This document shows positions 31,613 through 49,760 of a stretch of 64,000 nt of DNA, one piece after another; the stretch's first letter is position 1, and every line of letters starts with the position of its first letter. The position numbers and the translations under genes are program-made. The notes beneath the pieces were generated by a model. It saw only the letters and a program-made list of their open reading frames with translations. It was not told the origin of the DNA and ran no database searches. The stretch is from a virus: the IMG/VR virus record IMGVR_UViG_3300007345_000027, positions 33,090-97,089 of that record; one strand, written 5' to 3'.

Positions 31613-34600
31613 ATGAATAATGATATCTTAAAAATACCTCACATTGAGGACGATGAAGATTTTTTAAATTATAAAAATACTTTAGAAAAAGAACCTGAAG
31701 GTGATGTTAAAAAAAGGTATTGTATTGGATGTTATACACCAGAAGATTGGCAATATATTCATGAAGAATTGATGAGAGATGGAAGTTTAGATGATAATAT
31801 TCCATCAGATTGTTGTGATTGTGTTGATCAAAAACTCCACAGTGAAACAAGAGCTATTTACTTATTAACTGATTCGGAAGCTATAGCACTAAAAGAACAT
31901 CCTAGAGTAAAATATGTCAATGTTGATACGCAGTTTTATAGAGGAACATATTTGGTAAATCCCAAAAATGTGGAATTTTCTTACAGATGGAATCACGGTG
32001 CAAAGCATTATAGAGGAGATACTACTTGGTTGTATGGTCAATTGTCATCTAGAACTAATATAGGTGAGGACACTGGAAGAACTGGATATCAATTGTACAG
32101 GATGTCTCAGAAAGAGGATCCTTGGATAAATGAATCTAAGGGTATTACATTTGCCACGGCATCAAATTTTGGTAATATATCAAATTATTCTACAAATTCA
32201 CATCAAAACAACCAAATAAACGAAAATAATGGAACTGGTAGAGACGTTGATCTCGTAGTTGGTGATAATCAATGTTGGTTTGGTCATGCAGAATTCCAAG
32301 ACTTTCGTACATTTCAATCGACACCAGTACCTCAAGGTTATTGGCCATATGGACCATATGATTGGGATGGTGGTAATGTCTTAAACAGTAATTTTTCTGC
32401 AAGTGCTAGTAATGGATCATGTCAATTATTAGACTTAGTTTTGGAAGCACCATATTATCTAGATCCAACTTATTTTGAAGCTGATCCTAATAATAGATTA
32501 GAGACTAGATGGGATGGAACTACTGTACCCGTAGAACAAGTCGCAAAATCGTGGTGGGGAAATGTTAACAGTAGAAGTAGTACTACAATTTTAGGGGGAG
32601 CAGTTATTTCAATTCCATCCTCATATACGAGAGCTAATTGTAATGGTACATTTCAAAATAGAAATGTACCCCAAATTCCTAGTAGTGCATCTCATGGCAC
32701 ATCTTGTGCATCACAAGCATATGGTAAATGGCATGGATGGGCATATAATGCAAATAAGTGGTATGTAGATGTGTATAGTACCTATGGTCTTGGATTTGAA
32801 AATTATTTTGATATGTTGAAATTATTTCATTTATATAAACCAAATAGAACATCTGATGATTCAAAAAATCCAACCGTTTCCAGCAATAGTTGGGGTTTTA
32901 GACTTCCATTATCAGCACTGCTTACTGGTTATTATTATTTTAGATCGGGAACTTTGGGTGGTGGAGGACAACAATATGATATTGATGATGGATCAGGAAG
33001 TGTAGATTGGGGAGCAAGTCCCAGATTTCTAACCCATTTCACAGAACCAAATACTCTTTTTCAATGTGAAATGGTAGATAATTCTGAATCTCAAGCAGGT
33101 GAAGAACTTATTGATTCTGGAGTAATCTTTGTACATGCTTCAGGGAATGAAAATCAAAAAATGGTGAAATCAGAACACCCAGATTATAATAATTACATCT
33201 ACCCAACTGCAAATCAAACATTGGCTCAATCTATTGCACAATATGGGGGGCGTAATTATACTCTTACTGTTAATAGAAAAGGGTTTCCTGGACAGATAGG
33301 AAAAGTGAACAATAATGATGGTAGTGTTACTTACAGAACAATTTGTATTGGAGCTTTAGATTCTAACTATGATAATGAAGGTAGAGAAAGAAAAGTATAC
33401 TATAGTAATATGGGAAATGCGGTAGACGCATATGCACCAGGTGAATTAACTATTGCAGCAACAGCACAGGATGGTGCTATTAGTGGTTATTCTTTTTTAT
33501 ATGAAAGGCATCCTGGTACAGCTTATTCTTATGATGGGAATAATCTTTCTGAAATTTCATATGATAATTCATTTACTGGTAGTAGTTCAGCATGTCCACT
33601 AGCAGCTGGTTTAATTGCAACTGTACTGGAACAAAATAGAGGATGGAATTATTCAAGTGTTCTTTTGTATATTTCAAATAATGTTGGAACACAATCATCT
33701 ATTCAGTTTTACAGTGGTTCTGAGTCTACACAATATGATGATCAAAATTTTACCGATCTTCATTCTATAGAGGGTGGTTCACCAACAATACTCTGGAACG
33801 CTCCACTTGCAGGTTCAGTACCTGATGCACAAAATTATTACTCGGATGAAGGAGAATTAACAGATCACTTTATTACTGAAAAATGGTTTATAGATCAATA
33901 TATTGGTGATAGATTAGTTACTACTGGTGATAATGCTTTGGGGCAATTAGGTAATGGATCATCTACAACTGATTTTGGATCATTTTATTATCATTATGAT
34001 GTTAATACTCAAGCAAAGGATAGTTGGAAAGATGTTAAATGTGGAGGATATCACACACTAGCAGTAACTAGAGAAGGAGTTTTGTATAGTTGGGGAGCAG
34101 ACAGTGATGGGCAGTTGGGTGATGGTAATGCTGGTGGTGCTATTACTGTACCAAACTCAACAGCTTTAGGTACTCAATTTACTCGTATAAAAATTATATC
34201 TGCTGGATTACAACATTCTGCATTGATATCTACACAAAAGATTTTATATACTTGGGGTGCTAATGGGGCTGGACAATTAGGTAATGGAAGTAATACTTCT
34301 ACATCCACACCAACACCTGTTAATTTTGATGTTGATTGGGTTCAAGTTTCTGGGAAAGGATTTCATACTATGGCAATTAAAGATAATGGCACTCTTTGGG
34401 CTACTGGGAACAATACTTATGGGCAACTTGGATTGGGTGATACTTCAGATAGAAACACCTTTACTCAAGTTGGAACTGATGAAGATTGGTTAACAGTATC
34501 AGCAGGAAGAAATCATACATTAGCACTTAAAAAGGATGGAACATTGTGGGCATGGGGTGGAAATTATCTTACTAATGGTAATGTTTCTGGTAGAGAAGGA

Positions 34601-40242: not shown

Positions 40243-40271
40243 TTGACACTCATATCAAGATGCTCTATAAT
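40243..40271 (+). promoter_or_regulatory. consensus sigma70 early promoter
   Basis: TTGACA (40243-40248), 17 nt, TATAAT (40266-40271). Confidence 0.85.
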
Positions 40272-40300
40272 ACGTGGGTAATCAAGGGAACCCCCCCATC

Positions 40301-40495
40301 ATGAACAACACTGCTGAGTACGTTGAAGGTATTGTGATTGACATTTGCTCTCGTTCATTCCTTCTTTTGAGTGATCAGGGGGATGAAAAATTTGTTGAAT
40401 GTGAAACTGTTGATCAGTTTATGAATGTTCTTGAAGTTGTTACTGCCAATCTTGATGAGGATCAAATTGAATATGCAGAGCTTGCAACTACCTGA
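40301..40495 (+). CDS. small acidic hypothetical protein
   Basis: ATG at 40301 downstream of the promoter; 64 aa, strongly acidic. Confidence 0.6.
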   Translation: MNNTAEYVEGIVIDICSRSFLLLSDQGDEKFVECETVDQFMNVLEVVTANLDEDQIEYAELATT

Positions 40496-40509: not shown

Positions 40510-40683
40510 ATGAAATTTTTTACAGTGCAAGAATGGGAAGAAAACTTTGATGAATTATTTGAAAGAGTTGAAAATGGAGAAACGATAGGTATAGTCAATC
40601 AAAAGGGTGATAAAGCTGTGATGATGCCTGCTAATGACGATTTATTGAAGATGTACATCGAAGACAACCACGAAGCACCTTGA
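40510..40683 (+). CDS. Phd/YefM antitoxin-like small protein (57 aa)
   Basis: Not in the ORF track; hand translation MKFFTVQEWEENFDELFERVENGETIGIVNQKGDKAVMMPANDDLLKMYIEDNHEAP matches the Phd N-terminal pattern. Confidence 0.65.
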   Translation: MKFFTVQEWEENFDELFERVENGETIGIVNQKGDKAVMMPANDDLLKMYIEDNHEAP

Positions 40684-40708
40684 CAAATCACGACTCTTAC
40701 CTTATAAT
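40680..40708 (+). promoter_or_regulatory. consensus sigma70 promoter driving the RNA cluster
   Basis: TTGACA (40680-40685), 17 nt, TATAAT (40703-40708). Confidence 0.88.
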
Positions 40709-40715
40709 TACTACA

Positions 40716-40888
40716 GCGAGGACTTGAGACGTTCCAACCAAAGGTGCCCAGCGGTTCGGATATACCGAAACCCTGTAGTTGGGAAATAACTCCCTTTGGA
40801 TATTCGGGGTGGTTCCCGTCTTATTCCGATGTGAAACTGTCAGTATACTGGGTGTAGCGCCCACATAGTATACGGATAAGTCCATCGT
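40716..40888 (+). ncRNA. unassigned structured non-coding RNA (~173 nt)
   Basis: Starts at the predicted +1 of the promoter; GC-rich against background; its ends pair (GCGAGGACUU with AAGUCC-A-UCGU); several nested helices; ends 3 nt before the first tRNA. Confidence 0.65.
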
Positions 40889-40891
40889 CAT

Positions 40892-40963
40892 GGGACTATC
40901 GCATATTGGTTAATGCCCACTGCTTATAACGGTGTGAACTGGGTTCAATTCCCAGTAGTCCTA
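40892..40963 (+). tRNA. tRNA-Ile (anticodon UAU)
   Basis: Cloverleaf: acceptor GGGACUA/UAGUCCU, D GCAU/AUGC, anticodon stem CACUG/CGGUG with loop CU-UAU-AA (40925-40927), T arm CUGGG-UUCAAUU-CCCAG, discriminator A; CCA not encoded. Confidence 0.85.
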
Positions 40964-40985
40964 TTTGCTATTCGCAAATAGCAAA
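40964..40985. repeat. perfect 9-bp inverted repeat spacer between the tRNAs
   Basis: TTTGCTATT-CGCA-AATAGCAAA. Confidence 0.85.
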
Positions 40986-40986
40986 C

Positions 40987-41059
40987 GCTCCTTTAGCAAT
41001 CTGGTGAATGCAGCGAACTCATAATTCGCCTAAGGTGTGTTCGATCCACACAAGGAGCA
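40987..41059 (+). tRNA. tRNA with CAU anticodon (Ile2/lysidine type favoured; elongator Met not excluded)
   Basis: Acceptor GCUCCUU/AAGGAGC, anticodon stem GCGAA/UUCGC with loop CU-CAU-AA (41020-41022), T arm GUGUG-UUCGAUC-CACAC, A73; has C4-G69 and C5-G68; lacks the initiator C1:A72 mismatch and GGG/CCC stem. Confidence 0.85.
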
Positions 41060-41447: not shown

Positions 41448-44400
41448 ATGCCTCTTAATAAGTTAGAGAATTTTATCAAGAATTATGAGGGTAGAATTCT
41501 ATATGTAAATTCCAACGACTTAGATGCTACAGATAGCGTTACCAATCAAGGTAATTCTTTAGCAAAACCATTTAAGACTATTCAGAGAGCGTTGATAGAA
41601 TCCGCGAGATTCTCCTTTGTTCCTGGCGAAAATAATGATAAGAACGATAGAACAACTATTCTGGTTTTCCCAGGAGATCATATAATTGATAATAGGCCAG
41701 GATGGGGAATACTTGATGGTGGTGTTGCCTTAGCTAATGCAAAATCACCTTCTGGTGCTGTTGTTAGCCCTGCATCAAATATATTTGATTTAAGTCTTCA
41801 AACTAATTTTGATTTAACGCAAGAAGATAATGCATTATACAAATTCAATAGTGTTAATGGTGGTGTAGTAATACCACGTGGTACTTCTATTGTTGGTTTA
41901 GATTTAAGAAAAACAAAAATTAAACCAAAATATGTACCAAATCCAACCGATGATAGTGTACCAACAGCATCAATATTCAGAGTAACTGGTAATTGTTTCT
42001 TCTGGAACTTCAGTTTCTTTGATGCTGATTCTTCAGAAGAAGTTTATACTGATAATCAAGTATTTACTGAGGTTTCAGGAAATAAAGCACTCCCAACATT
42101 TTCTCACCATAAATTAACTTGTTTTGAATACTGTGATGGTGTAAACATTCCAACTGGTTATGAGCAGACTGACTTGGATATGTATTATGCCAAGTTATCA
42201 AATGCATTCAACCAAGCATCTGATAGAGAAATTCCCGAAAGTCAAAAATTCCCATTATTACCAGAAGGATTCTCTAAAATAAGAAGTGAATGGGAAATTG
42301 TGGGTGCTTTTGCAACCGATCCTGTTCAAATAACAGATATTTTCTCTGGAGACAGAGCAACAGCAAACTCCACAGTTACTGTTACAACAAACGTTCCTCA
42401 TGGATTTAGTGTCGATACTCCGATTACAATTCGAGGGGTCAATGTCTTTGATTATAACATTTCAACGGTAGTACAAACAGTACCATCACCAACTACTTTC
42501 ACATATCAAATACAGGCAGTAAGAAATGATTTATCTGCAGATCCTGGTGGTGATGCTTCAGTTATAATCGATACAGATACTGTAAAAGGTTCTTCTCCAT
42601 ATATTTTCAACTGTTCGTTGAGATCTGTTTGGGGAATGAATGGAATGCACGCTGACGGATCTAAGGCATCTGGATTCCGCTCAATGGTTGTTGCTCAGTT
42701 TACTGCAATATCTCTCCAAAAAGATGACAGAGCTTTTGTAAAATATGATCCATTCAGTAAAACTTACTTAGGTGTACCTAGAACTGGTGAAGATGGGTAC
42801 GAGAATTCAAAGGGTGCTGAATTGTCATCTGGATCAGCACAAACAGATCCGTCTAGGGTATATCACTTAGATGCAGATGCAATTTATAGGAGAGGTTGGG
42901 AAACTTCACATATAAGAATGTCTAACGATTCAATCATTCAGGTTGTGTCAGTTTTCGCAATTGGTTTCAATAAACATTTTGTTGCTGAGTCTGGTGGTGA
43001 TGCTTCAATCACAAACTCCAACTCAAACTTTGGTCAAATTGCATTAAGTGCTGAAGGATTTAAGAAAGAATCCTTTAGTAAAGATAATTATGGATATATC
43101 ACTTCGATTATTACACCAAAATCAATTAAACGTGTAGAACAATCAACTGACTGGTTAACAATTGATATTGATAAAACTACAAATATAGGTATTTCAAGTC
43201 ACTTATATCTGTTTGGATTTACAACCTTAGATAATCCACCACCATCACTTGTTTCTGGTGCTAAGGTTGGTGCGAGAGAAGATGAAAACCTTAATTTAAT
43301 TTTACCTGGTATTGCTCAAACTCTTACCAGTGGTAAAATTTTGATGACAGATAATGTTGTTACACCAACTCAATTATGGTCTGAAGGAACAACTAGTTCT
43401 GTTAAAGAATATCAAATATCTCAATATGCACAAGCACCCGATTACCAAACTATTGTAACTTCTAAAATACACAATATTCAAACTGGAGAAAAAATAGTAT
43501 TTGTTAGTGATACTGGTGAACTTCCAGATAATATTGAACAGGGTGTAGTATATTATGCTATTAGAGGTGCTGGTGTTCAATCTTCACAATTAAAAGTTGC
43601 AACATCCTTAACAAATGCAATAAATGGTGTTGCGATAAAAGTAAACGGTGGAGCAAATTTAAGAGTACTGAGTAGAGTTATTGATAAAGATAGTGGGGAT
43701 TTTGGTCATCCAATTCAATTTGATGAAAACAATTCAAATTGGTTTATTCATGTAGATGCAGCAAACACAATTTATACTAATGTTGTTGATGGTGGACAAG
43801 TAGCTTTTGATAATGAACCAAGAACAAATTCTACTTTTGTAAATAGAATTCCCGATCCAAGAAGTTTAGACGAGCGTCTTTATAAGGTTAGAATAGTAGT
43901 TCCAAAAGAAGCTCCGAATGCTAAATCTCCAGCAGAAGGATTTGTAATTCAAGAAACAAGCAAAACTGCTGCATTAGAAAATTCAGAATTTACATTATCA
44001 AATATTGGTCTGAATAACTTTGATTATAAGAGAAATTATCGATATATTGCAAATATAACTGAAGCAACTGATGTTGTAACTGTTACAACTGAAGTTCCTC
44101 ATTCACTAAAACTTGGTGATAGAGTCCTTATTAAAAAAGTAAAATCGACAGAAAATACTACTGGATTAGACAATAAAGGATACAATGGTGATTTTATTGT
44201 TACAGGAATAACTAATCACAAACAATTTACATATTCAACTACAGATATTAATGGTATAGAGCATAATGTTGGTGTATTTACACAACCAACTGTACGTGAT
44301 AATAATCTACCTTTCTATGAAAGAAATGATTTACAATCAAACCTCTATATTTATAGAGTTGAAACTATCACTCCATATAGCTTTAATGCTCAAGATGGTG

Positions 44401-47400
44401 TTTATCATGCTTATGTATTAAAAGCAGATAGAGCTATTCCAAACCATTTTACAGACTATAAGTATAGTCAAAATGTTGTGGACTTATATCCACAACAAGA
44501 TAGAGATAATATCGATGAAAATCCATCGGCAGCATTCTCGTATGCAAAGAATTCTCCACTTGGTGATGTTGTAACTAATGATCTTAAAAAGAGTATCACA
44601 AGAGAAGCATTAGACACTTTAATTAAAGATCTTGGTGGTGCTTTAACTATTGATAGTGTAGGAACATTTGATTCTGCTCAAGGAACTATTGAAATAACAT
44701 TTGATAGAGAACATGGATTTAATGGTATTAATGGATATACCACAATAACTGGCAATACAGGAAACTCTTTTGCTGAAGGTACATCATATAATGTACGTCT
44801 ATTAAATCAAAATGCACTTTGGAATGGTGCAACAGCAACTGTTACAGTTAATCAGGGACAAGGTAATATTTCATCCCTTGAAATTTCTGATCATGGATGT
44901 GGGTATACAAATAATCAAATTCTTTCCGTAGAAGGATTTAGCCCAGTAACAATAACTGTTACAGATTCATGCATTTCAAAATCCGAAAATGACATATTAG
45001 AAATTAGTGGTATAGGAACAGCCTCTGACAATTTATTAAGAATTGCAAGTGTTACTGATACAACAACTGTTGCTGTAGCTAGAACTTCTGGGGATCCAAT
45101 TATTGTCACTGGACAATATGCAACACAAGTTGGTCCATCTACAATTACTAAAGAAGTTCAATTTGATAGCAGCGTTGGTATAACAACATTTATATTTGAA
45201 CATGGACATATGATGTCCGTTGGAAATAAATTTAAAATTGTAAATGATGATATTGCAGATTCTTATAATGTTGGAGATTTCTTTGTAAAAGAAGTAGTTG
45301 GCGTTCATACATTCACAGCAACTACAACTAACTCTATTGGTACAGGAAATACCCATAGAATTATGAGATATGCATTTAATGCAAATGATGCATTATCAAA
45401 TGCTTCTAATGAAAATATAGGATCTAGAGGACACCACATCTATGATGGTGATTATGCAATCTTAAAGGAAGATGTTAGTGCTATTGATTCGTCTGGAACT
45501 GCAACTTTTGCAATTGAAACTGCCAATGCTGGTATTGGAACAGTAACTAGATTTGATTTGGGTAGTTATATCTTAATTAATAGTGAAATAATGAGAATAT
45601 CCAGTGATTCTCTTTCTGGATCTGGAAATGACAAAGTTACTGCAATTAGAGGATATTTTGGTACAACTAAAGATAATCACAAAGAAGGTGCTTTGATTAA
45701 AAAGATCAAAGTAATGCCTATTGAATTAAGAAGACCTTCTATTCTTAGAGCATCTGGACATACATTTGAATATCTTGGTTTTGGACCTGGTAACTATTCA
45801 ACAGGATTACCACAGATTCAAGTAAAAACACTCACAGATCGTGAAGATTACTTAGCACAATCCCAAGAAAGATCTGGTGGTTCTGCTCTTTATACTGGAA
45901 TGAACAGTGATGGTGACTTTTTCATCGGTAATACCAAACTTAATGCACAATCTGGTGAGGAAGAAAGTTTTGATATACCAGTTGCGACAGTAACAGGTCA
46001 AGATCCATCGAGATTGAGCGTTCTCTACGATGAAGCAATTATCAGAGAGCGTATTGTTGTTGAAGGTGGTAAATCTAAACAAATCTTATCACAGTTTGAT
46101 GGACCAGTCAACTTTAGTGAGAATGTAATTTATAATAGTGAACAAGTAAAGGTAAATGCTTTATTAGTTACTTCTGGATTAGTTAGATTTAATAATATAA
46201 CTGAATCGGAAAGCAATAGTACTGGTTCCGTTGTAATGAGAGGTGGTCTTGGAGTTCTTAAGAACTTAAATGTTGGTGGCAATTTAGTTGTTACTGGAAT
46301 TACAACGTTTGACGGTGATGTTACATTCAATAAGGGATTAATCCCAGAAAGTATTGAAAGTGCATATATTGGAACTGAAGGAAGGCCGTGGTCACAAGCA
46401 TGGATTGGTGGTATTGGTATTGCTACAGAAGGTGTACCAGGGGGAACTGAACCAGAAGATAGACTTATTAATGGATGGACTGGTGATCTTTTACTCACAT
46501 CATCTGCTGGTATTGTTTCCGTAACTGATGATTTAACTGTTGGAAACTACTTATTAGTAAAAGAAAATTCTGGATTTACTGGAGTTGCTACTTTCGGATC
46601 AGATTTATTACCAGCAATAGCAGCACCAAATACCGCTGATGGTAGAGAAGATGATGATGTTGGTGTAGGTATAGGAAGCACAGGAATTGCATTTAGAGAT
46701 GCACACATTGGCGCAGTTCAAGTAGGTTATAGTAGTGTTAATACTATTGATACTTCTGCAAGTGATTTGATTTTAGATTCTTCCACCGATGAAGTTTATG
46801 TTGATAGTAATTTAACTGTTAACAAAGTTCTTACCGTTATTGAAGGATCAACTTTCACTCAGGAAGCAATTTTTGACCAAAATATTCTACCAAGAAATGA
46901 TGATCCTGCACTAAATTCTTCAGTAGGTTCTAATCAAAAGAGATGGTCTGCTGCATATATTGATGCAGTAGAAATTGGAGTAGGAAAAACAAATCAAATC
47001 TATGGTGGTCATAATTCAGATCTCATCTTAGATTCGGATACAAATAAAGTACATGTTGAGTCCAGACTGTTTGTTGATAATGATTCCGAATTCTCTGGTA
47101 TTGTAACTGTTAAGAAGTCAATTCAACCAAATAGTTCGGCGGGTGAGGGTGCTTGTGGTATTGGATCAACTGATAGGAGATTTACTGAAGCATTTATTGA
47201 TGATATCCAAATTGGATGGAATGGAACAGCAGAAATAGATACTAGAACTGGTAATCTTACGTTAGATTCTGAAGGTGGAACTGTTGAAGTTGATGATCAT
47301 TTAGATGTTAATGAAACTCTTAATGTTGATGGACAATCCGAATTTACTGGTATAGTAACATTCAAAGCTGGTATTTTACCAGATGTTGAAGATGGTGCTT

Positions 47401-49760
47401 ATATTGGAAGTGCCGATAAGCCATTTGAAAAAGCATGGATAGGTGAAATTGGAATTGGAACAACGGCCGTTGGTGAAAGTAACATTACTGGAAATAGTAT
47501 TGTTTCTAGAGATGGTTTCCTGTACTTAGATTCTGAAGGTGGAAGAGTTGTAGTTGAAGATACATTAGATGTTTCTGAAAGATTGCTTCTTTCGGGAACA
47601 TCAGACATGACTGGTATTGTAACTATCAGAGCTGGTCTTGTTCCACATTCAAACAAGAGTTGTGGTCTTGCAACGGTTGGAAAAGCATTCAGTCATGCAC
47701 ATATTGGTGATTTAGAAATAGCTTTAGGTACAACAAATGGTGTTACTGAACAAACAATAACCACAAGAACTGGTTCTTTATACCTTTCAGCAAATGCAGC
47801 AACAGATGATGTTGTTTCTGAAAGAGATTTCACCGTACAGAAAAAATTAAAAGTAGATGAAACTTCTGTTCTCACAGGAATAGTTAGTGTTACTAATGGT
47901 ATTTGGCCAACTACAACACTTACAGGAACTCTTGGAACAGATGTTAAACCATTTAAATCTGCATTTATTGGTCAAATCTCTATTGGAGCAACTGATACTG
48001 GAATAGATGGTGGTGATGGTGCTAATGTAATTACAACAGAAGAAGCAAATACGAGATTATTCTTGGACTCTACTGCTGGAACAGTCCAAATAAGGGATAA
48101 TCTTGAAGTTGATGGAACATCAAAATTTGATCAACAAGTAGACTTTAGAGCTAATGCTATTGTTCATACACAAATTCTACCCGATGCAGATAAAGGTGCT
48201 TCACTTGGTGCAGCAGATAAAGCATTTAGTCAAGGACACTTTGGCAATATTAGTATTGCTGGTGGTGTAGATACTCAAAATGATGATGATAACTTAATCT
48301 ATGCTACAGATAATGAGTTAAAACTTGATGCTGCTAATGGAAAAGTTGATATTTTAAATGATCTTGAAGTTAGTAGAAATGCTGATTTTGTAAATGAATC
48401 TGGATTTACAACATTCAGAGGATCAGTTTATTTTAGAAATGCAATTCTCCCACTTGCTAATGAAGGTAGTGGACTTGGTAATGAAGATCTAGCTTTTAAT
48501 GATGCATACATTGATGAAATTATCATTGATGAAAATAAAATTAGATCGAGAGTGGATGGAGAAGGTATTGGTCAAAATTTAAGACTGGAACCATCTAGTG
48601 GTATTGTTGATATTCAATATGATGCTACACTTGGTAGAGATCTTAGTGTAACAGGAATTACTACATTAACTGGTGATGTTAACTTTGATGGTAACTTGAT
48701 ACCAGTAACTGATAGTTCAATAATAGGAACTGCAAATACTGCATTTGGAGCAGCATATATTGATGATATAGTATTGGATGGACATAAACTTTCCGTTGCT
48801 ACTGCTGATACAAATCTTGAACTTCAAGCAGGAAGTGGAACAGGTGTAATTGATTTCAAATCAGAAGTTGAACTTAGTAGTGCAAAACTGACAGGTAATA
48901 TAACATTAGAGAATTCTACTCTATATGTTAACAATGCCTCAGAACAAGCACAAATTACACTTTCTCCAACTGCTGTAGATATTAAGCAAGATGTAACTAT
49001 ATCAGATACTTTATCTGTAGAAAAAGTAACCATTACTGGATTGGATGGTACTAATGTTAGAACTGCTGCATTCTTACAAGTTGGAGCATCAAATGCTACA
49101 CTTGCAAGTAGCAGTAAAACAACTGGAGCTTTAGTAGTTTATGGTGGAGCAGGTATTAATGGAACAGTATATGCATCCAATATTAATGCTTCAACTTCAC
49201 AATCAACTCTTCATTCATTATCAGTTACCAATAGTGGTTCATACGATGGTAATTTGACTGTTAATGGCACATTAGTTGCAAATGGAGGTATTACTGGTAC
49301 TGTTCAATTTGCTAATAGAGCAACTAATGTTGCGGGTGGAGCAGCAGGAAGAATACTTTATCAATCAGGATCGAATGTAACAACTAATAGTGCCAGTTTA
49401 GTATTCTATACCAGTGGATCAACAAAAGAATTACGTGTTGGTGGTGATATTGTTGCATTCTATAGTTCAGATGAAAGATTCAAGGATAATATCAAGAAAA
49501 TTGATAATCCTTTAGAGAAAGTTCTTTCTATTGGTGGATACACATTTGATTGGAATGAAAAATCTGGTAAAAAAGATTATGGTTCAGAAACAGGTGTTAT
49601 TGCACAAGAAATTGAAAAACTTGGATTACCTGGAGTAGTTGAAACCAGAGAAGATGGTCATCTTGCAGTTCGTTATGACAAACTTGTTCCACTGTTAATT
49701 GAGTCAATTAAAGAACTCAACAATAAAGTTGAGGAATTACAAAATCGATTCGATAAATAA
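41448..49760 (+). CDS. giant (2770 aa) tail fibre / virion structural protein with C-terminal peptidase S74 chaperone
   Basis: MPLNKLENF..N.EGRILYV...PFKTIQRALIESAR N-terminus typical of cyanomyovirus fibre proteins; ~70-aa shaft repeats; SSDERFKDNI...GVIAQEIE...VRYDKLVPLLIESIKEL. Confidence 0.85.
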   Translation: MPLNKLENFIKNYEGRILYVNSNDLDATDSVTNQGNSLAKPFKTIQRALIESARFSFVPGENNDKNDRTTILVFPGDHIIDNRPGWGILDGGVALANAKSPSGAVVSPASNIFDLSLQTNFDLTQEDNALYKFNSVNGGVVIPRGTSIVGLDLRKTKIKPKYVPNPTDDSVPTASIFRVTGNCFFWNFSFFDADSSEEVYTDNQVFTEVSGNKALPTFSHHKLTCFEYCDGVNIPTGYEQTDLDMYYAKLSNAFNQASDREIPESQKFPLLPEGFSKIRSEWEIVGAFATDPVQITDIFSGDRATANSTVTVTTNVPHGFSVDTPITIRGVNVFDYNISTVVQTVPSPTTFTYQIQAVRNDLSADPGGDASVIIDTDTVKGSSPYIFNCSLRSVWGMNGMHADGSKASGFRSMVVAQFTAISLQKDDRAFVKYDPFSKTYLGVPRTGEDGYENSKGAELSSGSAQTDPSRVYHLDADAIYRRGWETSHIRMSNDSIIQVVSVFAIGFNKHFVAESGGDASITNSNSNFGQIALSAEGFKKESFSKDNYGYITSIITPKSIKRVEQSTDWLTIDIDKTTNIGISSHLYLFGFTTLDNPPPSLVSGAKVGAREDENLNLILPGIAQTLTSGKILMTDNVVTPTQLWSEGTTSSVKEYQISQYAQAPDYQTIVTSKIHNIQTGEKIVFVSDTGELPDNIEQGVVYYAIRGAGVQSSQLKVATSLTNAINGVAIKVNGGANLRVLSRVIDKDSGDFGHPIQFDENNSNWFIHVDAANTIYTNVVDGGQVAFDNEPRTNSTFVNRIPDPRSLDERLYKVRIVVPKEAPNAKSPAEGFVIQETSKTAALENSEFTLSNIGLNNFDYKRNYRYIANITEATDVVTVTTEVPHSLKLGDRVLIKKVKSTENTTGLDNKGYNGDFIVTGITNHKQFTYSTTDINGIEHNVGVFTQPTVRDNNLPFYERNDLQSNLYIYRVETITPYSFNAQDGVYHAYVLKADRAIPNHFTDYKYSQNVVDLYPQQDRDNIDENPSAAFSYAKNSPLGDVVTNDLKKSITREALDTLIKDLGGALTIDSVGTFDSAQGTIEITFDREHGFNGINGYTTITGNTGNSFAEGTSYNVRLLNQNALWNGATATVTVNQGQGNISSLEISDHGCGYTNNQILSVEGFSPVTITVTDSCISKSENDILEISGIGTASDNLLRIASVTDTTTVAVARTSGDPIIVTGQYATQVGPSTITKEVQFDSSVGITTFIFEHGHMMSVGNKFKIVNDDIADSYNVGDFFVKEVVGVHTFTATTTNSIGTGNTHRIMRYAFNANDALSNASNENIGSRGHHIYDGDYAILKEDVSAIDSSGTATFAIETANAGIGTVTRFDLGSYILINSEIMRISSDSLSGSGNDKVTAIRGYFGTTKDNHKEGALIKKIKVMPIELRRPSILRASGHTFEYLGFGPGNYSTGLPQIQVKTLTDREDYLAQSQERSGGSALYTGMNSDGDFFIGNTKLNAQSGEEESFDIPVATVTGQDPSRLSVLYDEAIIRERIVVEGGKSKQILSQFDGPVNFSENVIYNSEQVKVNALLVTSGLVRFNNITESESNSTGSVVMRGGLGVLKNLNVGGNLVVTGITTFDGDVTFNKGLIPESIESAYIGTEGRPWSQAWIGGIGIATEGVPGGTEPEDRLINGWTGDLLLTSSAGIVSVTDDLTVGNYLLVKENSGFTGVATFGSDLLPAIAAPNTADGREDDDVGVGIGSTGIAFRDAHIGAVQVGYSSVNTIDTSASDLILDSSTDEVYVDSNLTVNKVLTVIEGSTFTQEAIFDQNILPRNDDPALNSSVGSNQKRWSAAYIDAVEIGVGKTNQIYGGHNSDLILDSDTNKVHVESRLFVDNDSEFSGIVTVKKSIQPNSSAGEGACGIGSTDRRFTEAFIDDIQIGWNGTAEIDTRTGNLTLDSEGGTVEVDDHLDVNETLNVDGQSEFTGIVTFKAGILPDVEDGAYIGSADKPFEKAWIGEIGIGTTAVGESNITGNSIVSRDGFLYLDSEGGRVVVEDTLDVSERLLLSGTSDMTGIVTIRAGLVPHSNKSCGLATVGKAFSHAHIGDLEIALGTTNGVTEQTITTRTGSLYLSANAATDDVVSERDFTVQKKLKVDETSVLTGIVSVTNGIWPTTTLTGTLGTDVKPFKSAFIGQISIGATDTGIDGGDGANVITTEEANTRLFLDSTAGTVQIRDNLEVDGTSKFDQQVDFRANAIVHTQILPDADKGASLGAADKAFSQGHFGNISIAGGVDTQNDDDNLIYATDNELKLDAANGKVDILNDLEVSRNADFVNESGFTTFRGSVYFRNAILPLANEGSGLGNEDLAFNDAYIDEIIIDENKIRSRVDGEGIGQNLRLEPSSGIVDIQYDATLGRDLSVTGITTLTGDVNFDGNLIPVTDSSIIGTANTAFGAAYIDDIVLDGHKLSVATADTNLELQAGSGTGVIDFKSEVELSSAKLTGNITLENSTLYVNNASEQAQITLSPTAVDIKQDVTISDTLSVEKVTITGLDGTNVRTAAFLQVGASNATLASSSKTTGALVVYGGAGINGTVYASNINASTSQSTLHSLSVTNSGSYDGNLTVNGTLVANGGITGTVQFANRATNVAGGAAGRILYQSGSNVTTNSASLVFYTSGSTKELRVGGDIVAFYSSDERFKDNIKKIDNPLEKVLSIGGYTFDWNEKSGKKDYGSETGVIAQEIEKLGLPGVVETREDGHLAVRYDKLVPLLIESIKELNNKVEELQNRFDK

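Follow-up and report, generated by a model that had tools for sequence, protein, structure and literature searches.

A structured RNA family in the tRNA arrays of marine Synechococcus phages

Structured RNAs in and near phage tRNA clusters

It has been clear for many years that the tRNA clusters of phages can conceal RNAs of other kinds. The tRNA cluster of bacteriophage T4 contains two of these, RNAC (species 1, 139 nt) and RNAD (species 2, 119 nt); RNAD lies 1 nt past tRNA-Arg and RNAC a further 6 nt past RNAD. No role has been assigned to either in decades (PMC3014915, PMC9697503), a gap of about 50 years. The RNA described here was noticed in a 64,000-nt stretch of viral DNA (positions 33,090 to 97,089 of the IMG/VR record IMGVR_UViG_3300007345_000027; hereafter, the window) and resembles the T4 pair in being a gene of a phage tRNA cluster, on the same strand and of similar size. 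RNAC and RNAD stand at the end of their cluster, whereas the cyanophage RNA normally has a tRNA next downstream and, unlike them, comes with two exchangeable 5′ modules and with pseudoknots. Homology with RNAC and RNAD was considered and rejected, as covariance model R1 found no match at E ≤ 1 in the tRNA region of T4 (69000-75000); the resemblance is therefore one of kind.

GOLLD and ROOL are phage and prophage RNAs that often lie close to tRNA islands, and GOLLD has a conserved 3′ part and a variable 5′ part (PMC12286853). They, too, are still unexplained. The layout of GOLLD parallels the conserved 3′ rod and exchangeable 5′ half of the cyanophage RNA, but both GOLLD and ROOL are three to five times its size and assemble into RNA-only nanocages. 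The GOLLD and ROOL models of Rfam matched neither the element in the window nor eight homologous loci.

In T4-like cyanophages and marine metagenomes, two structured RNAs, manA (RF01745) and wcaG (RF01761), have been reported (Weinberg et al. 2010, PMC2864571). These were described as 5′-UTR elements of protein genes, unlike the tRNA-flanked RNA of the arrays. They can share genome regions with it, as wcaG does in phage S-N03, though their covariance models do not match it. The wcaG RNA of S-N03 (2462-2559 of our locus L005) scored 70 bits, over the gathering threshold, and is found about 800 nt 3′ of the element. In the same locus, a further segment immediately behind the element (about 1700-1860) has a strong predicted fold and no annotation. 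The genome of S-CREM1 carries three antitoxin genes, and its wcaG, manA and abiF RNAs are clustered within about 1 kb (PMC9964418). Fremin et al. (2023; PMC10690425) surveyed IMG/VR intergenic regions, the source of the present RNA too, and listed 8,495 unnamed candidates of 29-151 nt (mean 67 nt). The text of that paper mentions no cyanophage tRNA-array RNA; a part of the RNA, such as its rod, could be among the unnamed candidates. No description of the RNA itself was found in the literature searched.

The locus, its relatives and their place in tRNA arrays

The window belongs to a 97-kb IMG/VR viral record with an estimated completeness of 46%, the AT-rich DNA of a T4-like cyanophage. The features of the locus are collected in Table 1. 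The promoter agrees with the sigma-70 consensus at all 12 positions, which places the transcription start at about 40715/40716, and its -35 hexamer overlaps the stop codon of the upstream Phd-like gene. Model R1 matched the window at 40715-40892 with 176.5 bits (E 1e-46), and the copy is the only one both in the window and in the whole 97-kb record. The G+C content of the RNA is about 0.49; in 180-nt bins it stands at 0.45 against 0.23-0.39 for the other bins of the region, a rise that resembles that of tRNAs.

Table 1. Features of the RNA locus in the window, with helices as in the consensus fold
Feature	Position	Strand	Details
Orphan Phd-like antitoxin gene	40510-40683	+	57 aa; phrog_375, E 1e-12
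Sigma-70-type promoter	40680-40708	+	-35 TTGACA 40680-40685; 17-nt spacer; -10 TATAAT 40703-40708
ncRNA (model R1)	40715-40891	+	about 175 nt; predicted start to last nt before tRNA-Ile
P1 hairpin	40720-40734	+	40720-40723/40731-40734; 96% paired, 3 compensatory pairs (A1)
P2/P3	40738-40799	+	P2 40738-40744/40793-40799 around P3 40747-40752/40778-40783
P3 extension hairpin	40753-40772	+	variable; carried by P3
J3/2	40784-40792	+	conserved 3′ internal loop between P3 and P2
P4	40802-40821	+	40805-40809/40814-40818; loop UGGU; flanking covarying pair A40802-U40821
Pseudoknot 1, 3′ strand	40824-40826	+	UUC (CUC in most copies); directly 5′ of rod
3′ rod	40827-40887	+	P6 40827-40831/40883-40887; P5a 40843-40848/40868-40873; P5b 40849-40854/40858-40863
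P6b	40836-40841/40875-40881	+	invariant bulged helix in rod; ACUGUC with GAU-A-AGU
3′ tail	40888-40891	+	UCAU, single-stranded; ends at predicted RNase P cut; 2-5 nt in 135 members
tRNA-Ile(UAU)	40892-40963 (Rfam, 57.2 bits); 40891-40964 (ARAGORN)	+	CCA not encoded
tRNA-Met(CAU)	40987-41059	+	ARAGORN; second tRNA of small array

Upstream, the neighbouring genes encode an RCC1-repeat protein, a lectin-fold structural protein, a DUF7294 protein and then the Phd-like antitoxin; downstream they encode a phrog_4134 protein and a 2770-aa tail fibre. Against PF02604 the Phd-like gene scored E 9e-6 and 25.8 bits, which is under the curated cut-off of Pfam, and there is no toxin gene beside it. A second perfect 12/12 sigma-70 promoter on the same strand (40243-40271), 437 nt from that of the RNA, lies directly 5′ of the DUF7294 gene (40274-40495). 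The tail-fibre gene (41448-49760) begins about 390 nt past the tRNAs and ends in a Peptidase_S74 (intramolecular chaperone) domain; a tail-fibre gene lies downstream of the RNA in S-T4 and S-SKS1 too. The pair of tRNA-Ile(UAU) and tRNA-Met(CAU) with its 23-nt spacer recurs in S-TIM5, S-SM2 and S-PM2 at 71-81% identity.

The preliminary description of this segment, made by a model from the letters alone, saw no likeness to tRNA, tmRNA, RNase P, SRP, manA, wcaG or PhotoRC RNAs and proposed an Rfam scan. That judgement held: at 40716-40888, Rfam 15 gave no family, including YrlA, 6S and small ribozymes, either at the gathering threshold or at E ≤ 10, and ARAGORN placed no tRNA or tmRNA inside the element, only the two tRNAs downstream. 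When eight homologous loci were scanned at E ≤ 0.5, nothing overlapped the element; apart from tRNAs and chance matches to them, the scan gave one wcaG, located elsewhere. We conclude that this is a real structured RNA family, so far undescribed and absent from the catalogue of Rfam 15.

Homologues number at least 155 copies in marine cyanophage DNA and fall into three lineages, Kyanoviridae, Aurunvirus and Llyrvirus; the 155 loci were gathered by pattern scans of IMG/VR together with phage records, followed by a profile search. When phage genomes were searched with blastn, the element alone aligned, at 70-87% identity, and the flanking DNA did not. Carriers found in this way are S-PRM1, S-T4, S-CAM9, S-N03 and relatives, S-SM2, Syn1 and S-RIM44 among the Kyanoviridae, and S-TIM5, S-TIM54, S-TIM61 and S-TIM66 in Aurunvirus; in the Llyrvirus siphovirus S-SKS1 only the 3′ part aligned. 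Every cultured carrier recovered is a Synechococcus phage. Family members are 136-205 nt long, and exactly one copy was present in each of the 92 loci searched with R1.

Most of the phage records fetched leave the RNA unannotated. In three of them it is covered by "hypothetical protein" calls, namely SSM2_176, Syn1_196 and S-TIM5 gp179, the last on the opposite strand. These calls (1398-1604 of the S-SM2 locus L006, 1368-1550 of the Syn1 locus L007 and, on the minus strand, 1462-1746 of the S-TIM5 locus L004) overlap both a tRNA and the RNA and are probably false, the deposited genomes mis-annotating the RNA as hypothetical protein genes. The possibility of a small coding ORF was rejected: in agreement with the preliminary description, which saw no credible sense ORF, no reading frame is kept across the 65 representatives aligned. 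Their lengths are spread about evenly over 0, 1 and 2 modulo 3; 30 have no stop-free frame across the element, and among the 35 that do, the frame differs.

With R1, no copy turned up in either of two samples of 151 genomes each, one drawn from the whole of the Cyanobacteria and one from a single family with genomes of 1.3-2.2 Mb, presumably picocyanobacteria; in both searches the top first-filter candidates were scored. Judged on these 302 sampled genomes, the RNA looks phage-specific. A loose pattern scan of genome contigs gave chance matches in unrelated bacteria among the matches listed, none of which was confirmed by nhmmer.

The position of the RNA within tRNA arrays is regular. Of the 112 full-length copies, 92 follow a tRNA whose end is 1-3 nt away from the first helix, and in 135 of all 155 copies a tRNA begins 2-5 nt past the last helix; most of the other copies without a close downstream tRNA are at contig ends. 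The identity of these tRNAs varies by copy, the upstream one being Asn, Met, Arg, Gly, Thr, Ile or Leu and the downstream one Leu, Thr, Val, Asn, Pro, Gly, Ile, Lys or Ala. No upstream tRNA is present in 20 full-length copies. Two of these are cut by a contig end, and all the other 18 have a promoter of the form TTGACA-17-TATAAT, which matches the consensus at 10 or more of 12 positions in 17. From the end of the -10 hexamer to the RNA there is one fixed distance in all 18, the same as in the window (7 nt). The window carries the 5′ variant GAGGAC in place of AGGAAC. Among the 18 promoter-driven copies 12 have it; among the 92 preceded by a tRNA, none does. With a promoter or a tRNA at fixed spacing on the 5′ side and a tRNA on the 3′ side, it follows that promoter and upstream tRNA set the same 5′ end and that the downstream tRNA sets the 3′ end. 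The view of the preliminary description that this is a discrete non-coding RNA with its own consensus promoter, abutting a tRNA and hence predicted to be released by RNase P, is thus borne out by the promoter, by the 155 homologous copies and by the downstream tRNA.

A minority of copies have a protein gene within about 15-30 nt of the 3′ end of the RNA, petE in S-TIM5 and S-TIM54, a Phd-like gene in locus L055 and another gene in L192; in these copies the RNA may serve as a leader. In three further loci (L128, L139 and L217), an extra conserved hairpin of about 50 nt (ACAGGUUGGUUCACCUGU) lies between the 3′ end of the RNA and tRNA-Thr and may be another small array-embedded RNA.

RNase P cuts at position +1 of a tRNA, and RNase Z cuts after the discriminator of tRNAs that have no encoded CCA. 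From the gene arrangement and these established steps of tRNA maturation, we infer that the RNA is excised free with a leader of 1-5 nt and a tail of 2-5 nt. In the window, the host RNA polymerase would start at the consensus promoter and the transcript would continue into tRNA-Ile and tRNA-Met; a cut by RNase P at the 5′ end of tRNA-Ile would then free the RNA, leaving it a tail of 4 nt. Most relatives would instead owe their 5′ end to 3′ processing of the tRNA that ends 1-3 nt upstream.

The same arrangement could be read as that of a cis-acting processing element, a spacer or leader that aids the folding of the adjacent tRNA or tunes cleavage by RNase P or RNase Z and has no life after excision. 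The RNA is indeed always fused to tRNAs at 1-5 nt, and its 3′ rod stops just short of the RNase P site. Yet the arrays hold one copy each despite many tRNA-tRNA junctions with 2-5 nt spacers, the flanking tRNAs differ between copies, and 18 copies are first in the transcript, directly behind a promoter. About 50 invariant positions (alignment A1) together with pseudoknots also far exceed the needs of a spacer, and we regard such a role as improbable.

Consensus fold and exchangeable 5′ halves

The fold of the single sequence is modestly better than that of shuffled sequences (z = -2.1); the strong evidence for the RNA is comparative. Alignment A1 comprises 65 representatives of the type found in the window (type A) with less than 97% identity to each other. 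Its paired columns are 5-9/17-22 (P1), 25-31/82-88 (P2), 34-39/67-72 (P3), 94-98/105-109 (P4), 118-123/239-244 (P6), 127-132/232-238 (P6b), 134-139/225-230 (P5a) and 141-143/158-160 (P5b). Standard pairs make up 94.7% of the cells in these columns; sliding the 3′ partners by 1-3 columns lowers the share to 31-44%. Double-sided changes were found in 23 pairs, and the observed values were reached by none of 500 shuffles; this control ignores phylogenetic relatedness and is supportive rather than a formal test of covariation.

The covariation speaks for four hairpin domains, namely P1, P2/P3, P4 with its purine-pyrimidine flanking pair, and a long 3′ rod composed of P6, P6b and P5. The P1 loop, UUGAGAC (40724-40730), is identical at six of its seven positions in all 65 representatives, and the last position is C in 60. 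P2 is 95% paired with four compensatory pairs, while in P3 the pair of columns 36 and 70 is AU in 32 sequences, CG in 16 and UA in 9. P4 is 99% paired, with double changes in all six pairs, and its flanking pair R91-Y112 (AU 42, GC 22) was found by a mutual-information scan. In the rod, P6 is 98% paired with four compensatory pairs, and in P5a the pair of columns 135 and 229 is UA 36 times and AU 27 times. Length variation is restricted to the tips of P3, P4 and P5. A possible terminator was flagged by a simple scan at 40805-40827, where P4 is followed by UCUUAUUCC; relatives do not keep the U-rich tail (GUCCUACUCC), so this is probably no terminator.

The check on homologues and covariation that the preliminary description had proposed thus had a mixed outcome, in that copies and covarying helices were found but several of the helices it drew are unsupported. 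CCAAAGG/CCUUUGG corresponds to P2, GGUUCGG/CCGAAACC to the variable P3 extension, GUAUAC/GUAUAC to P5a and UGGG/CCCA to P5b, all supported on A1. The closing helix 40716-40725/40878-40888 did not stand: among the 65 sequences, three of its pairs are present just 9, 13 and 6 times, and its nucleotides belong to the covarying P1 and P6. Judged by eye, only the window and a few close relatives (L136, L143 and L179) have the whole helix in A1. It competes with P1 and P6 and explains why the minimum-energy fold of the window (-57.6 kcal/mol) beats the consensus-constrained one (-50.4 kcal/mol) by about 7. GAGACG/CGUCUU is contradicted at A13-Y112, which fails in 22 of 65, Y112 covarying with R91 instead; AGUUG/UAACU is only 48.6% paired; and UCCG/CGGA has its fourth pair in 21 of 65, at a position that covaries with P6 instead. 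A pairing of UUCCAAC with GUUGGGA, offered as a switch or pseudoknot, was likewise lost, its C22-column 70 pair forming in 16 of 65. As these pairings are not conserved, the RNA is better described as a row of hairpins tied by pseudoknots than as a multibranch structure with a terminal helix.

Two tertiary contacts were proposed. The alignments suggest that G40726-A40727-G40728 of the P1 loop pair with 40824-40826 to form pseudoknot 1, a pairing that is possible in all 65 rows of type A and all 28 of type B, the second type of the family; type B allows a fourth pair, which is CG in 19, UG in 5 and UA in 4. In the model, pseudoknot 1 would be stacked directly on P6. The second contact, pseudoknot 2 (40789-40791 with 40811-40813), would probably join the GG in the loop of P4 to the CC of the internal loop between P2 and P3; the pair of columns 78 and 104 is GC in 30 and AU in 13, with 79% paired overall, and fails in the Syn1-like subgroup as aligned. 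P6b, pseudoknot 1 of type A and the kissing loops of type B (see below) are invariant, and are hence compatible with the fold model rather than proof of it. We also weighed, and set aside, a reading of the P1-loop GAG as a codon-like specifier of tRNA-Glu, since no more than 3-5 nt would support it.

The profile search recovered 43 copies through their 3′ rod alone. For 29 of these, which include S-SKS1, the 5′ half could be delimited via the upstream tRNA, and 28 were placed in alignment A2. This type B has, in place of P2-P4, two shorter hairpins with mutually complementary loops, UAACCA and UGGUUA (A2 columns 34-39 and 58-63; for example, about 1452-1481 of locus L008). Both loops are invariant, so that kissing within one molecule and kissing between molecules are indistinguishable. 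Common to types A and B are the 5′ hairpin with its UGAG loop, the (A/G)CUCC right before the rod, and the rod itself.

A compact pseudoknotted fold in which nucleotides of junctions and loops are invariant and peripheral helices vary might also be expected of a self-cleaving or otherwise catalytic RNA of a new class, and phage genomes are rich in small ribozymes. Nevertheless, no hammerhead, twister, twister-sister, pistol, hatchet or HDV-like match was obtained at E ≤ 10, the ends are already supplied by the promoter, RNase Z and RNase P, and the exchange of a whole 5′ half in type B is unusual for a catalytic core. On this evidence catalysis is quite unlikely.

Possible function and significance

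Two further explanations concern the genes around the RNA, and both have very little probability. As a ligand-sensing or cis-regulatory, riboswitch-like leader, as proposed for the cyanophage manA and wcaG motifs, the RNA would have the appropriate aptamer-like complexity and conservation; in the S-TIM5 lineage the petE start follows it by about 15 nt, and in L055 it precedes the Phd-like gene, with the wcaG RNA of S-N03 also at hand, but few copies precede an ORF, the downstream neighbour in 135 of 155 being a tRNA, there is no conserved terminator or platform for sequestering a ribosome-binding site, and the manA and wcaG models do not match. As a captured host antitoxin RNA of a type III-like system, serving as a decoy against a host abortive-infection toxin, it would fit its frequent neighbour, the orphan Phd-like antitoxin gene, and the toxin-less abiF antitoxin RNAs in cyanophage RNA clusters (PMC9964418); against this, no homologue was present in the 302 cyanobacterial genomes sampled, each locus has one copy rather than a ToxI-like repeat array, and Rfam gave no abiF or ToxI match.

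Taken as a whole, the observations are best explained by an undescribed family of structured non-coding RNAs that resides in the tRNA arrays of marine Synechococcus phages, an explanation to which we assign a probability of about 0.75; its members may act in trans. The trans-acting reading is suggested, if weakly, by the occurrence of the RNA once per array, its independence of the flanking tRNAs, its roughly 50 invariant positions and its combination of a rod with exchangeable 5′ modules, features which point to a binder. During infection, the stable RNA would bind, divert or scaffold a host or phage factor. Of the 155 loci, 53 have a Phd-like homologue no more than 1.5 kb from the RNA and in the same orientation, S-SKS1, S-SM2 and Syn1 among them; this orphan antitoxin neighbour and the RNA clusters of cyanophages make a host-takeover or counter-defence RNA the best guess. 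The proposal that the RNA binds, diverts or scaffolds such a factor in one of these roles is tentative, at somewhat below even odds; that the 302 sampled genomes gave no host homologue for it to mimic counts against it.

A more specific and rather doubtful version is that the family constitutes a new functional class, either a phage RNA released by RNase P that neutralises or hijacks a Synechococcus factor of tRNA biology, or an RNA that self-assembles in the manner of GOLLD and ROOL. If this were true, a tRNA-targeting immune nuclease or a tRNA-processing or tRNA-modifying enzyme would be the candidate factor; the conserved rod would then serve as recognition module, with the exchangeable 5′ half as effector or adaptor.

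The family offers a compact, abundant and testable case among the RNAs of phage tRNA clusters, with a fold supported by covariation, defined ends and two natural module variants, and its carriers include the cultured Synechococcus phages S-TIM5, Syn1, S-SM2, S-SKS1, S-CAM9, S-PRM1, S-T4 and S-N03. It would be a new family for RNA databases, and solving its function could show why phages pack their tRNA operons with structured RNAs.
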